Shown one piece after another: positions 6,233-47,576 of a stretch of DNA of 64,000 nucleotides. The notes under the pieces are model-generated. The model saw nothing but the letters and a program-made list of their open reading frames with translations. It ran no database searches and was not told the origin of the DNA. The translations under genes and the position numbers were made by a program. Origin of the DNA: Escherichia coli (GTDB lineage: Bacteria; Pseudomonadota; Gammaproteobacteria; Enterobacterales; Enterobacteriaceae); NCBI RefSeq assembly GCF_009931435.1, contig NZ_CP043414.1; one strand, 5' to 3'. Position 1 is the stretch's first letter, and each line of letters begins with the position of its first letter.

Positions 6233-6269
6233 TAATTACCGGATGGCGAGTGCCATCCGGTATCATGGC

Positions 6270-24619: not shown

Positions 24620-25275
24620 TTCTCACCTAATGTGTAGCCAATACCATGAACGGTACGAATAAAATCACTGCCGAGTTTGCGTCGCAGATGATGTACATGC
24701 ACTTCAACGGCATTACTGGTGACCTCTTCGTCCCAGGTATACAGTTTCTCTTCAATCAGTTTGCGCGGCAGTACCCGACCAGCGTTACGCATCAGTAATT
24801 CCAGCAGGGCAAATTCTTTTGGTTTCAGCGTTAAGGGTTCGCCAGCCAGCGTGGCGATACGTTTGCCGGGGTCGAGCATGACGTTACCGTGGCGCAGCTC
24901 GTTGCTGGCCTGGCCGTTGGTTCGGCGCATCAGAGCTTCCAGCCTGGCGGCGACTTCTATCAACGCAAAAGGTTTACACAGATAATCGTCAGCTCCCAGA
25001 CGCAGCCCTTCTACACGTTCCGCCAGCGCATCGCGCGCAGTCAGGATTAATACCGGCTCACGCTGACCTTTTTCTCGCCATTCGCGCAAAATATCGCGAC
25101 CATCCATGCCCGGTAAGGTTAAATCCAGGATCACCGCATCATAAGGTGCGCTATATAGCGCCTCTTTTCCCTGACGACCTTGTGTAAACCAGTCGACGCT
25201 AAAACCCATTTTACTAAGGCCCGTTTTGATGCCGTCGCCAATCAGCATGTCATCTTCTATCAGTAAAATTCGCAT
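24616..25275 (-). CDS. qseB: Response regulator QseB (OmpR family)
   Basis: ORF track 219 aa; receiver domain plus winged-helix. Confidence 0.9.
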
Positions 25276-25426
25276 TTTTTCATCCCTGCGATAACCATAT
25301 TTGCTGCCAGTAAACCGTGTTGTAACGCGCTCTGTACAGCACTAAATTTTATTTTTTTCCCTTAAGAAGTTGTTAAGGACTATCTTGTTAAATGCTCGAA
25401 AACAGACATTAAAGGGAGTAATAAAC

Positions 25427-25819
25427 ATGAAAAAATTCGCAGCAGTAATCGCAGTAATGGCCCTGTGCAGTGCACCGGTGATGGCAGCAGAGCAGGGCGG
25501 TTTTTCTGGTCCATCGGCAACACAAAGTCAGGCCGGAGGATTCCAGGGGCCGAATGGCAGCGTAACGACCGTAGAAAGCGCAAAATCCCTGCGTGATGAC
25601 ACTTGGGTCACCCTGCGCGGCAATATCGTTGAACGTATCTCTGACGATCTCTACGTGTTCAAAGATGCCAGCGGTACTATCAATGTTGATATCGACCACA
25701 AACGCTGGAACGGCGTGACGGTGACCCCGAAAGATACCGTTGAGATTCAGGGTGAAGTCGATAAAGACTGGAACTCTGCTGAAATTGACGTCAAACAGAT
25801 CCGCAAAGTAAATCCGTAA
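25427..25819 (+). CDS. ygiW: BOF/OB-fold periplasmic stress protein YgiW (VisP)
   Basis: ORF track frame; start at MKKFAAVIAVMALCSAPVMA (signal peptide), 130 aa. Confidence 0.85.
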   Translation: MKKFAAVIAVMALCSAPVMAAEQGGFSGPSATQSQAGGFQGPNGSVTTVESAKSLRDDTWVTLRGNIVERISDDLYVFKDASGTINVDIDHKRWNGVTVTPKDTVEIQGEVDKDWNSAEIDVKQIRKVNP

Positions 25820-25828
25820 TTGTTAGCG

Positions 25829-25851
25829 CTCCCGGGACACGTTCCCGGGAA
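25829..25851. terminator. Stem-loop between ygiW and ygiV
   Basis: tcccggga-cacgt-tcccggga inverted repeat 10 nt after the ygiW stop; no clear U-run. Confidence 0.35.
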
Positions 25852-25871
25852 TAATTTCGCAGGGAGGCAAA

Positions 25872-26354
25872 ATGAAAAACCTGACACTGGATGTAAATAT
25901 TATCGATTTCCCATCAATCCCTGTGGCGATGTTGCCACATCGCTGTAGCCCTGAATTGCTCAACTACAGCGTGGCGAAATTTATCATGTGGCGTAAAGAA
26001 ACGGGGCTTTCTCCTGTTAACCAAAGCCAGACTTTTGGTGTCGCCTGGGATGACCCTGCCACCACCGTACCGGAAGCGTTTCGCTTTGATATCTGCGGCA
26101 GCGTTAACGAACCGATTCCCGATAATCGTTATGGCGTGAGTAATGGTGAACTTACCGGTGGACGTTATGCCGTGGCCCGCCACGTTGGCGAGCTGGACGA
26201 TATTTCACATACGGTATGGGGCATCATTCGCCACTGGCTGCCTGCAAGCGGCGAGAAAATGCGTAAAGCACCGATTCTGTTTCACTACACCAATCTTGCC
26301 GAAGGGGTAACAGAGCAGCGACTGGAAACGGATGTTTATGTGCCGTTGGCGTGA
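25872..26354 (+). CDS. ygiV: GyrI-like / AraC-effector-binding domain protein YgiV
   Basis: ORF track 160 aa; position downstream of ygiW. Confidence 0.8.
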   Translation: MKNLTLDVNIIDFPSIPVAMLPHRCSPELLNYSVAKFIMWRKETGLSPVNQSQTFGVAWDDPATTVPEAFRFDICGSVNEPIPDNRYGVSNGELTGGRYAVARHVGELDDISHTVWGIIRHWLPASGEKMRKAPILFHYTNLAEGVTEQRLETDVYVPLA

Positions 26355-26462
26355 TGAAGAATCTTTACCGGAGTGTGAGCCAAATCACTCGCGATAAGTT
26401 TGAGCGAACAATGCCACAGGCGTATTGTTGTTGGGCTTATAATTTCTCCGGTAAGGAATACC

Positions 26463-28070
26463 ATGTATACGCGAAATTTATTATGGCTGGTCAGCCTGGT
26501 AAGTGCGGCTCCTCTCTACGCTGCTGACGTTCCCGCCAACACACCGCTCGCCCCGCAACAAGTCTTTCGTTACAACAATCATAGCGACCCAGGTACGCTC
26601 GACCCGCAAAAGGTGGAGGAGAATACTGCCGCGCAGATTGTGCTGGATCTGTTTGAAGGTCTGGTATGGATGGACGGTGAAGGCCAGGTGCAGCCCGCTC
26701 AGGCTGAACGCTGGGAGATACTGGACGGCGGCAAGCGCTATATTTTCCATCTGCGTAGAGGTTTGCAGTGGTCAGACGGTCAGCCTCTGACGGCAGAGGA
26801 TTTTGTCCTCGGCTGGCAGCGCGCGGTTGACCCGAAAACGGCAAGCCCTTTTGCTGGCTATCTGGCACAGGCGCACATTAACAATGCCGCGGCTATTGTT
26901 GCGGGTAAAGCAGATGTTACATCGCTGGGTGTCAAAGCGATGGATGATCGTACTATTGAAGTTACGCTTGAGCAGCCGGTTCCTTGGTTCACGACGATGC
27001 TCGCCTGGCCGACGCTGTTCCCGGTTCCCCATCATGTAATCGCGAAATATGGCGATAGCTGGAGTAAGCCTGCGCATATGGTTTACAACGGTGCCTTTGT
27101 GCTTGATAAATGGGTAGTTAACGAAAAGATTACTGCACGCAAAAATCCAAAGTACCGCGATGCGCAACATACGGTATTGCAACAGGTTGAGTATCTGGCG
27201 CTGGATAATTCGGTCACCGGCTATAACCGCTATCGCGCGGGAGAGGTCGATCTCACCTGGGTTCCGGCACAGCAAATTCCTGCCATTGAAAAATCACTGC
27301 CTGGCGAGCTACGAATTATCCCGCGTCTGAACAGCGAATATTACAACTTTAACCTTGAGAAACCGCCATTTAACGATGTGCGGGTGCGTCGGGCGCTATA
27401 TCTTACGGTTGATCGACAGCTTATTGCGCAAAAGGTACTGGGGTTGAGAACGCCCGCAACCACGCTGACGCCGCCAGAGGTAAAAGGCTTTAGCGCGACG
27501 ACGTTCGATGAACTGCAAAAGCCAATGAGTGAGCGTGTCGCGATGGCAAAAGCCTTGCTGAAACAGGCGGGATACGACGCCTCTCATCCGCTACGCTTTG
27601 AGCTGTTCTACAACAAGTACGATCTGCATGAAAAAACCGCGATAGCGTTGTCTTCCGAATGGAAAAAATGGCTGGGTGCACAGGTGACGCTGCGCACAAT
27701 GGAGTGGAAAACCTATCTTGATGCCCGACGAACCGGTGATTTCATGCTGTCTCGGCAGTCGTGGGATGCGACGTACAATGATGCTTCCAGCTTTCTGAGC
27801 ACGCTCAAAAGCGATAGTGAAGAAAACGTCGGTCACTGGAAAAATGCGCAGTATGACGCCTTACTAAACCAGGCCACGCAGATCACTGATGCGACAAAGC
27901 GTAATGCGTTGTATCAGCAGGCAGAAGTAATCATCAACCAGCAGGCACCGCTGATTCCTATCTACTATCAGCCGTTAATCAAACTGCTTAAACCCTACGT
28001 TGGCGGTTTTCCGCTGCATAATCCCCAGGATTATGTCTACAGCAAAGAGTTGTATATCAAGGCACATTGA
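26463..28070 (+). CDS. ygiS: Periplasmic solute-binding protein YgiS (OppA/DppA family), 535 aa
   Basis: ORF track frame; start at ATG 26463 (MYTRNLLWLVSLVSAAPLYA signal peptide) with SD. Confidence 0.85.
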   Translation: MYTRNLLWLVSLVSAAPLYAADVPANTPLAPQQVFRYNNHSDPGTLDPQKVEENTAAQIVLDLFEGLVWMDGEGQVQPAQAERWEILDGGKRYIFHLRRGLQWSDGQPLTAEDFVLGWQRAVDPKTASPFAGYLAQAHINNAAAIVAGKADVTSLGVKAMDDRTIEVTLEQPVPWFTTMLAWPTLFPVPHHVIAKYGDSWSKPAHMVYNGAFVLDKWVVNEKITARKNPKYRDAQHTVLQQVEYLALDNSVTGYNRYRAGEVDLTWVPAQQIPAIEKSLPGELRIIPRLNSEYYNFNLEKPPFNDVRVRRALYLTVDRQLIAQKVLGLRTPATTLTPPEVKGFSATTFDELQKPMSERVAMAKALLKQAGYDASHPLRFELFYNKYDLHEKTAIALSSEWKKWLGAQVTLRTMEWKTYLDARRTGDFMLSRQSWDATYNDASSFLSTLKSDSEENVGHWKNAQYDALLNQATQITDATKRNALYQQAEVIINQQAPLIPIYYQPLIKLLKPYVGGFPLHNPQDYVYSKELYIKAH

Positions 28071-32926: not shown

Positions 32927-32960
32927 CCATACTCGCCCGAGTGGGCGAGTATGGAATACT
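32927..32960 (+). terminator. ftsP intrinsic terminator
   Basis: Long perfect hairpin ccatactcgcccgagtgggcgagtatgg followed by T-rich tract. Confidence 0.7.
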
Positions 32961-35252: not shown

Positions 35253-35290
35253 GTGAAATGTGCCCGGCAGCAATGATGCTGCCGGGAAAT

Positions 35291-37800: not shown

Positions 37801-37904
37801 ACGTTCCTCCTTTATATGAACTCACCGGAGCAGGCTCCGGTGAGGTGTTGTGAACTTAAGTCTGGACGAAATGCCCGAAAACGAAAGTTTGAGGCGTAAA
37901 AAGC

Positions 37905-39068: not shown

Positions 39069-39204
39069 TACTTGCTCCCTTTGCTGGGTCAATATGAGGG
39101 CAGAGATCGGTCTGCCTGATATTTTTCATTGTGGTCGCCAGCGCCGTACCTCTCAATGCTCATTTCTGCCAATGTCTTGCCTATTTCTCCAGAGTGCTGG
39201 AGAA

Positions 39205-40161
39205 ATGCGACAAAATTGCGCACAATCAAATTGCCGCATTATTCCTAAGAAATTACGCGATATGAAACGTGAAGAGATTTGCCGCTTGCTAGCGGGTAAA
39301 GTTAATAAACTGAAAAATAAAGAAAATAGTTTATCAGAGCTATTGCCCGATGTGCGTTTGTTGTATGGCGAGACGCCTTTCGCACGTACGCCGGTGATGT
39401 ACGAGCCTGGCATCATAATTCTCTTTTCTGGGCATAAAATCGGTTATATCAATGAACGCGTGTTTCGTTATGATGCCAATGAATATCTGCTGCTGACGGT
39501 GCCGTTGCCGTTTGAGTGCGAAACTTATGCCACGTCAGAGGTACCGCTGGCAGGGTTGCGTCTCAATGTCGATGTTTTGCAGTTACAAGAGCTGTTGATG
39601 GACATTGGCGAAGATGAGCATTTTCGTCCGTCGATGGCAGCCAGCGGGATTAACTCTGCCACGTTATCAGAAGAGATTTTATGTGCGGCGGAGCGGTTAC
39701 TCGACGTGATGGAGCGACCGCTGGATGCGCGTATTCTCGGCAAACAGATCATCCGCGAAATTCTGTACTACGTGCTGACCGGACCTTGCGGTGGCGCGTT
39801 ACTGGCGCTGGTCAGCCGTCAGACCCACTTCAGCCTGATTAGTCGTGTGCTGAAACGAATTGAGAATAAATACACCGAAAACCTGAGCGTCGAGCAACTG
39901 GCGGCAGAAGCCAACATGAGCGTATCGGCGTTCCACCATAATTTTAAGTCTGTCACTAGCACCTCGCCGTTGCAGTATTTGAAGAATTACCGTCTGCATA
40001 AGGCGCGGATGATGATTATCCACGACGGCATGAAGGCCAGTGCAGCAGCGATGCGCGTCGGCTACGAAAGCGCGTCGCAATTTAGCCGTGAGTTTAAACG
40101 TTACTTTGGTGTGACACCGGGGGAGGATGCGGCAAGAATGCGGGCGATGCAGGGGAGTTAA
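39205..40161 (+). CDS. yqhC: AraC-family transcriptional activator YqhC, 318 aa
   Basis: ORF track frame; start chosen at [10 protein letters not shown] to match length; divergent from yqhD; C-terminal AraC HTH. Confidence 0.8.
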
Positions 40162-47458: not shown

Positions 47459-47576
47459 TAGGTTTATCTCTTACGGGATTACGTCTTAAACAAGCATGAA
47501 AAAATAGCGTGCGCAAAAGTCGTTCTTTGCCTAAAATATCGCTATATATGACAATATATAGCGAATGAGGTGAACG

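Follow-up and report, generated by a model that had tools for sequence, protein, structure and literature searches.

A conserved RNA hairpin at the 3' end of the Escherichia coli ygiW mRNA, probably an exonuclease barrier within the ygiW-ygiV operon

Introduction

The hairpins in the malE-malF intergenic region are the classical example of an intercistronic stabilizer. RNA 3' ends that result from exonuclease trimming halted at stem-loops have also been described (PMC6061677, as summarized in PMC7815308), and RNase E prefers the sequence RN↓WUU (PMC10667835). Here, we examine a small palindrome between ygiW and ygiV of E. coli in light of these systems and of the intrinsic terminators that follow ygiW in sister genera.

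The downstream gene, ygiV, encodes a GyrI-like protein, and its gene dosage leads to high-level resistance of E. coli to the gyrase poison albicidin (PMC10414762). E. coli YgiV comprises only the C-terminal GyrI-like domain, as a shortened form of a two-domain regulator of the AraC type from which the DNA-binding domain is missing (PMC10414762). The orthologous pair in Salmonella Typhimurium, STM3175-ygiW, has been reported to be polycistronic (PMC10414762).

The palindrome was identified in a stretch of 64,000 nucleotides of an E. coli genome (NCBI RefSeq assembly GCF_009931435.1, contig NZ_CP043414.1), hereafter referred to as the window, and was initially put forward from sequence as a weak terminator or attenuator separating the two genes, or as the site of a dimeric regulator. 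Both the hairpin and the RNA 3' end associated with it are already present in published supplementary tables, and the hairpin is an ordinary element of its kind.

Results

A near-perfect palindrome is indeed present between ygiW and ygiV and comprises TCCCGGGA-CACGT-TCCCGGGA at positions 25830-25850, a perfect 8-bp stem closed by a 5-nt loop. The original prediction had the correct site and its exact offset of 10 nt (25820-25829) after the ygiW stop, although its limits of 25829-25851 were one base too wide at each end. From the ygiW stop to the ygiV start, the 52-nt spacer and its borders read taa-TTGTTAGCGC-TCCCGGGA-CACGT-TCCCGGGA-ATAATTTCGCAGGGAGGCAAA-ATG, which places the hairpin 21 nt ahead of the ygiV ATG. 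The 21-mer falls short of a perfect palindrome solely through the odd length of its loop. A property that had been missed is that each arm is itself self-complementary, with a SmaI site inside; the element therefore doubles as two direct copies of CG(C/T)TCCCGGGA that recur at an interval of 13 nt. RefSeq annotates the two genes as ygiW and ygiV in an E. coli genome that is 99.8% identical, which confirms the names; the neighborhood there comprises qseC-qseB (opposite strand), ygiW, ygiV, and ygiS. Coordinates of the features are compiled in Table 1.

Table 1. Features of the ygiW-ygiV junction, in positions of the window.
Feature	Position	Strand	Basis
ygiW CDS, 130 aa, OB-fold periplasmic stress protein	25427-25819	+	ORF list and RefSeq annotation of a 99.8%-identical genome; stop TAA at 25817-25819
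Stop-to-stem spacer TTGTTAGCGC, 10 nt, freely evolving	25820-25829	+	7 of 10 columns variable among 12 distinct Escherichia sequences
5' arm TCCCGGGA	25830-25837	+	Pair probabilities 0.89-1.0 (121-nt context); invariant in E. coli sequences read
Loop CACGT, 5 nt, polymorphic	25838-25842	+	CGCGT in K-12; also TGCGT, CGTGT, CGCAT; 4 of 5 columns variable
3' arm TCCCGGGA	25843-25850	+	Invariant in 12 of 12 distinct Escherichia sequences
Two 13-nt direct-repeat units holding the arms; slippage substrate	25827-25839 and 25840-25852 (25827-25852)	+	Repeat family D2; one-unit deletion in strain 730V1
AU-rich single-stranded tail AUAAUUUCG	25851-25859	+	K-12 3' ends transferred by coordinates to 25853-25856
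ygiV Shine-Dalgarno GGGAGG, not paired by the hairpin	25862-25867	+	Unpaired probability 0.85-0.97 at 25864-25867; invariant across Escherichia
ygiV CDS, 160 aa, stand-alone GyrI-like domain	25872-26354	+	ORF list, RefSeq annotation, PMC10414762

The fold energy of the 21-mer was -14.4 kcal/mol when folded alone and -15.4 kcal/mol as a centroid, with six G:C pairs among the eight of the stem, and the probability range given in Table 1 for the 5' arm holds for every stem pair. By allele, fold energies were -14.4 kcal/mol (K-12), -15.4 kcal/mol (TGCGT loop), and -13.5 kcal/mol (E. albertii). The palindrome is above chance expectation: dinucleotide shuffling of the window, repeated 100 times, never produced the exact pattern, and when the 52-nt spacer was shuffled 200,000 times, a perfect 8-bp stem with a loop of 3-8 nt arose in only 584 of the shuffles (0.3%).

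The stem is of the kind found in intrinsic terminators (GC-rich, ~5-14 bp, loop of 3-8 nt). The sequence that follows it is AATAATTTCG, with a tail, AAUAAUUUCG, that contains at most 4 U in 8 nt and begins with AAUAA. The lack of a clear U-tract that had been noted initially thus holds, and a terminator pattern scan that requires at least 5 T in 8 positions made no call at the hairpin. Screening of positions 25200-26600 on both strands against Rfam 15 covariance models (E <= 1) yielded two chance matches to snoRNA models elsewhere and none at the hairpin.

Several other identities for the element were considered and rejected. A REP/BIME or other dispersed repeat is contradicted by the copy number, with one match in the 64-kb window and, across E. 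coli genomes, a median of one location each. An anti-Shine-Dalgarno switch was suggested by the minimum free energy fold of a 61-nt segment, in which CUCCC of the 5' arm pairs with the ygiV Shine-Dalgarno, but this pairing has a probability of 0.002 in a 121-nt context. A ygiV promoter at AATAAT (25850-25855) was dismissed given the absence of a promoter-like call and of a -35 or extended -10 element, and given that its transcription start site (TSS) would land inside the Shine-Dalgarno.

Across the whole window, perfect inverted repeats of at least 8 bp with short loops were about sixfold more frequent (39, nested) than expected from first-order Markov simulations (6.6). Examples are located at 6238-6261, 14378-14401, 32929-32952, 35263-35286, 37821-37844, 39183-39206, and 47540-47563, and several have stems of at least 10 bp. 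These repeats are likely to be terminators or other structures at transcript ends.

All of the available RNA-end data are from K-12 and were transferred to the window strain via the identical stems and tail. The K-12 palindrome lies at NC_000913.3 3169273-3169253 on the minus strand, where stems, tail, and Shine-Dalgarno are identical to those of the window and the loop differs (CGCGT). The original prediction was to be abandoned if no 3' ends mapped to this site; three published K-12 data sets map a strong ygiW end 3-6 nt past the stem, at 3169250-3169247 (minus strand), which corresponds to window positions 25853-25856. Thus, an in vivo, Rho-insensitive 3' end lies within ~10 nt of the stem in the K-12 tables.

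Term-seq places the primary 3' end of ygiW at 3169249(-), 4 nt past the stem, with an RNA that ends in ...UCCCGGGAAUAA (Adams et al., 2021; PMC7815308). The table for the three growth conditions has three entries for this end, two of which give average counts of 29,202 and 422,457; its Rho score is 0.68 ('No'; outside Rho termination regions), and its intrinsic-terminator score, at 3.198, is borderline relative to the threshold of 3.0 (PMC7815308). DirectRNA-seq coverage in the same source was 56 upstream and 62 downstream of the end (PMC7815308). These values point toward read-through but gauge it imprecisely, since they were taken over 800-nt windows that include untranscribed DNA upstream and other promoters downstream.

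A second data set addresses the enzymes involved. Inactivation of RNase E lowered the proportion of ends at 3169248 from 0.214 to 0.041 (~5-fold; FDR 0.004), and deletion of pnp lowered that at 3169250 from 0.205 to 0.048 (~4-fold); trimming by PNPase stopped at 3169250 and that by RNase II at 3169249 (PMC10667835). The hairpin end is listed there among RNase E-cleaved, exonuclease-trimmed transcripts, with rows in Tables S3 and S6 (PMC10667835). Shortly past the stem, AA↓UUU at 25853-25857 conforms to the sequence that RNase E prefers. Operon 403 of the same study (Table S7) comprises ygiW-ygiV-mqsR-mqsA and is classified as complex, with 4 TSS and 3 TTS (PMC10667835); the grouping of these genes in one operon implies read-through. 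Collectively, the published tables describe a stem-loop between cistrons of one transcript with an end that depends on RNase E and on 3' exonucleases, as in intercistronic stabilizers.

The third data set (TRS) defines the primary ygiW terminus as 3169244-3169253, with peaks at 3169247 and 3169248 and R-bar values of 0.986 and 0.912, where values near 1 denote little local read-through (PMC10687069). Its supplementary table prints this hairpin in dot-bracket notation, with an energy of -15.4 kcal/mol (PMC10687069). No ygiW entry is present in the SMRT-Cappable-seq and TERMITe supplements.

The region is held, once per genome, by ~5,420 of 5,426 complete E. coli genomes. In 5,208 of the ~5,420, the central 28 nt (stems, loop, and adjoining bases) match exactly one of three alleles, which exact-word searches recovered in 4,694 (CGCGT), 386 (TGCGT), and 128 genomes (CACGT, that of the window). 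Within the central 28 nt these alleles differ in the loop alone, and one of them differs also in the flanking spacer. The 49-nt spacer departs from K-12 at no more than two positions in every matched genome. Among six rarer variants that were read, changes were located in the loop (CGTGT, CGCAT) and, in one case, near the Shine-Dalgarno, with no change in the stem. E. coli thus carries at least five loop alleles on stems that are invariant in the sequences read.

The hairpin was kept in all Escherichia sampled, which comprised E. coli, two further Escherichia species, E. whittamii, and E. albertii. An alignment of 12 distinct sequences was variable at 1 of 16 columns in the stem, 4 of 5 in the loop, 7 of 10 in the spacer, and 3 of 21 in the tail and Shine-Dalgarno (Fisher test of stem versus loop and spacer, p = 1.7e-4). 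Between K-12 and E. albertii, 2 of 37 sites differ in the stems and tail versus 79 of 292 third-codon sites of the flanking genes (p = 0.002). The only arm substitution in the genus is an A to G change in the 5' arm of E. albertii (TCCCGGGG), a single event; the closing pair becomes G-U in + strand RNA, and DNA and opposite-strand RNA acquire a mismatch. Among the 12 distinct Escherichia sequences, no stem pair was altered on both sides, such that comparative support for the structure comes from conservation alone, over a shallow phylogeny.

One E. coli strain, O19:H7 730V1, lacks exactly one 13-nt unit (L089 331-369, corresponding to window 25827-25852) and is left with a single TCCCGGGA; its spacer cannot form the hairpin (-0.7 kcal/mol). 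The low-identity band that contains this allele holds 2 of the ~5,420 genomes, in one of which the deletion was read, and the allele thus appears to be very rare. It represents a natural knockout and a ready-made allele with which to address the function of the hairpin.

The five E. coli loop alleles (window 25838-25841 and the same positions in seven sampled loci) differ by C:G to T:A transitions at 4 of the 5 loop positions. These transitions fit relaxed constraint; a more speculative alternative is deamination of unpaired cytosine in an extruded hairpin, on either strand.

The sequence downstream of ygiV differs among strains. The mqsR-mqsA toxin-antitoxin cassette, which lies between ygiV and ygiS in K-12 and in most of the E. 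coli listed, is missing from the window strain. The indel of ~0.9 kb falls directly after the ygiV stop (window 26354-26464, junction ~26357-26362), and in K-12 the cassette closes with the mqsA terminator just ahead of the shared sequence CTTTACCGGAGTG. The sole call of the terminator pattern scan in 25200-26600 was a terminator-like site at 26411-26433, between ygiV and ygiS, that comprises ATGCCACAGGCGT followed by ATTGTTGTTG; where mqsRA is absent, this site may serve as the end of the ygiW-ygiV transcript.

Gene content downstream of ygiW also differs among genera. Citrobacter and Salmonella arizonae/diarizonae have no ygiV, and their ygiW stop is followed, at the same distance as in E. 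coli, by a canonical terminator, AGGGCCGCG-TTC-GCGGCCCT and then TTTTCTTT. A downstream gene of 288-289 aa with AraC DNA-binding and GyrI-like domains is found in Klebsiella, Raoultella, Kluyvera, Yokenella, and others. A conserved box, TGCGCAAGATCGGTCAGGA, precedes this longer gene in the first 60-110 nt past the ygiW stop and is lacking in Escherichia. The box was present in all loci with a full-length homolog (15 loci); it may serve the two-domain regulator as promoter or autoregulatory operator and would have been lost together with the DNA-binding domain.

A second, strongly conserved motif, CTGTGACTCA...(C/G)AGATA(A/G)GGTA(G/T)TATC, follows the ygiW or ygiV unit in many genera other than Escherichia, often within an inverted repeat. 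It is located, for example, ~35-75 nt past the ygiW stop in loci L014-L032 and ~30-70 nt past the stop of the ygiV homolog in L037-L068, and is probably a promoter or operator of the next gene.

Local alignment against shuffles revealed that 13 of 15 positions of the hairpin core match the ygiW terminator of Citrobacter and Salmonella (p ~0.004-0.03). Separately, the 3' arm, tail, and Shine-Dalgarno align with codons R-V-P-K-M-A-S-Q-E in the linker of the closest full-length homologs (GACGCG-TCCCGAAAATGGCCTCACAGGAGC); this alignment is colinear with that of the protein domains and had p ~0.01-0.05 against shuffles in the four closest relatives. By eye, each of the first seven mismatches in the L058 alignment is a transition. 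CGCGT(T)C is common to the two candidate ancestors, and neither alignment is decisive.

The start of E. coli ygiV (window 25872-25900) is five codons ahead of the position of an internal Met that is conserved in the full-length proteins (TMDV in four homologs compared, TLDV in E. coli) and contains ~12-13 extra nt, CAAAATGA-CAAACCTGA, relative to them. This suggests that small duplications may have created a new ygiV start region.

Discussion

The palindrome is a real, conserved RNA hairpin at a stable 3' end of the ygiW mRNA, and its action as + strand RNA rather than as DNA is the best explanation of the observations. We consider it likely that the hairpin is an exonuclease barrier that stabilizes ygiW mRNA within a read-through operon, with a termination component that is minor at most. 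Transcripts from a promoter upstream of ygiW would extend across the 52-nt spacer to include ygiV and, in K-12, mqsRA as well. The spacer RNA would fold into the 8-bp stem-loop with its six G:C pairs (about -14 to -15 kcal/mol), and RNase E would then cut either in the single-stranded, AU-rich RNA that adjoins the stem on its 3' side or at a point beyond it. PNPase and RNase II would trim the products in the 3'-to-5' direction until halted by the stem-loop, 3-6 nt from its base. The outcome would be a discrete, protected ygiW mRNA with the K-12 3' terminus and a downstream ygiV RNA without that protection, such that the hairpin would set both a boundary and an expression ratio within the operon. 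The short AAUAAUUU tail may allow a minority of polymerases to terminate. We infer that the behavior of K-12 extends to the window strain; the hairpin presumably causes the 3' end, and ygiW would be expressed more than ygiV as a result.

The leading alternative to exonuclease protection is the role of a mainly leaky, Rho-independent terminator, in which RNA would be released 7-9 nt past the stem at the weak AAUAAUUU tract, the end would be nibbled back to +3 to +6, and the remaining transcription would continue into ygiV. The GC-rich 8-bp stem and 5-nt loop are within terminator norms, three U's occupy +6 to +8, the intrinsic score exceeds its threshold, bicyclomycin had no effect (PMC7815308), and the TRS statistic is high (PMC10687069). 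A canonical terminator is moreover found at the homologous position in sister genera, and the extent of its match to the hairpin core indicates that the hairpin may descend from a true terminator. The published RNase data can also be accommodated, since effects of RNase mutants can be indirect (with read-through RNA stabilized, the ends at any given site make up a smaller share) and since termination a few nt further on, followed by nibbling of the U's, would also be expected to make the exact end dependent on PNPase and RNase II; likewise, TRS values of 0.91-0.99 would also fit efficient termination. However, only 4 U are present in the 8 nt past the stem, with AAUAA first and a silent pattern scan, the end is several-fold lower both without active RNase E and in the pnp deletion and is listed as cleaved and trimmed (PMC10667835), ygiW and ygiV are assigned to one operon in published tables, and the mapped end at +4 is nearer to the stem than typical termination points. 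Processing is favored by the RNase E and PNPase dependence, the RNase II stop at the stem, the lack of a U-tract, the end at 4 nt from the stem, and operon read-through, and we regard a mainly terminating hairpin as rather unlikely, if the most credible of the alternatives. Of the weak terminator proposed originally, what stands is an RNA boundary between the two genes; simple weak termination is probably not the mechanism, and nothing points to conditional attenuation.

The dimeric regulator site that had also been proposed would require a transcription factor that binds the dyad TCCCGGGA-N5-TCCCGGGA as DNA and controls ygiV, for example as a roadblock or by repression of an internal promoter. 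The dyad is perfect and both half-sites are strongly conserved, and the ygiW end is included in Supplementary file 3 of PMC7815308; its presence there implies that a TSS lies inside ygiW, no more than 200 bp upstream of the end, and thus that there is some internal transcription on which a roadblock could act. Yet no promoter-like site is located nearby (AATAAT has no -35 partner), the half-site centers are 13 bp apart and so off the helical repeat, E. coli YgiV has no DNA-binding domain, and the sole arm change in the genus breaks the DNA dyad and preserves a G-U pair in + strand RNA, albeit as a single event. In three data sets, an RNA 3' end sits right at the foot of the stem; an RNA hairpin explains this position and a DNA site does not. 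No reported protein-binding site at the hairpin was found in the literature searched. An operator is accordingly without support and highly improbable. A neutral relic, by comparison, would have arisen through 13-nt slippage duplication of a self-complementary octamer that folds and stalls exonucleases by chance and with no benefit. Such an origin is compatible with the placement of the arms inside a 13-nt tandem repeat, with the slippage demonstrated by the 730V1 allele, with the resemblance of the 3' half of the spacer to linker codons of full-length ygiV homologs, and with the absence of covariation. We nonetheless consider neutrality improbable, given that stems and tail change far less than flanking third-codon positions, the adjacent loop, and the spacer, that the hairpin persists in at least five Escherichia species, and that the deletion allele is very rare.

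As to how the hairpin came about, one tentative and on balance doubtful scenario is that it arose anew in Escherichia through domain loss. An ancestral 288-aa gene with AraC and GyrI-like domains would have been located downstream of ygiW, as is still the case in Klebsiella, Kluyvera, and S. Typhimurium, and a deletion would have removed the upstream box of the gene together with its DNA-binding domain. Leftover linker codons could then have become the 3' arm, the AU-rich tail, and a new Shine-Dalgarno, and a 13-nt tandem duplication of the octamer TCCCGGGA could have made the 5' arm. A junction at the CGCGT(T)C microhomology is conceivable, although this is speculation. If domain loss were the origin, a single step would have given rise to the exonuclease barrier that now sets the level of albicidin-binding YgiV relative to YgiW.

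The true 3' boundary of the ygiW message lies at the hairpin, a matter of little importance beyond annotation, and the hairpin would account for how adjacent, co-transcribed genes can differ in expression. Since ygiV dosage affects albicidin resistance, an element that limits survival of ygiV RNA, and the rare deletion allele of that element, could shift baseline albicidin tolerance. The locus is also a neat case of an RNA hairpin made by tandem duplication of a self-complementary octamer.

Three known systems resemble the ygiW hairpin to differing extents. With the intrinsic terminators that follow ygiW in Citrobacter and S. arizonae/diarizonae it shares a position 9-10 nt after the orthologous stop, a GC-rich 8-bp stem, most of the core sequence, and Rho independence. 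It differs from them in that AATAATTT stands in place of the U-tract TTTTCTTT, and in that the E. coli hairpin is followed, 21 nt on, by a gene with its own Shine-Dalgarno that is assigned to the same operon, and has an RNase-dependent 3' end. With the exonuclease-trimmed ends of PMC6061677, to the extent that these are summarized in PMC7815308, it shares a 3' end that lies a few nt past a stable hairpin without a U-tract and that results from 3'-to-5' trimming; unlike the ends in that summary, the ygiW end was unaffected by bicyclomycin, and we therefore attribute exonuclease entry at ygiW to RNase E and not to Rho. The closest likeness is to the intercistronic stabilizer hairpins of selective RNA processing and stabilization, for which a genome-wide E. 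coli catalog exists (PMC10667835). With these it has in common a stable hairpin that separates two cistrons of a shared transcript, a site of the RNase E type in AU-rich sequence next to the 3' side of the stem, a stop of PNPase and RNase II at its base, and a discrete mRNA of the upstream gene. Relative to those stabilizers, the ygiW hairpin is single and small (21 nt), occurs once per genome, and is not a REP/BIME element, and its stabilization of the ygiW message is predicted.
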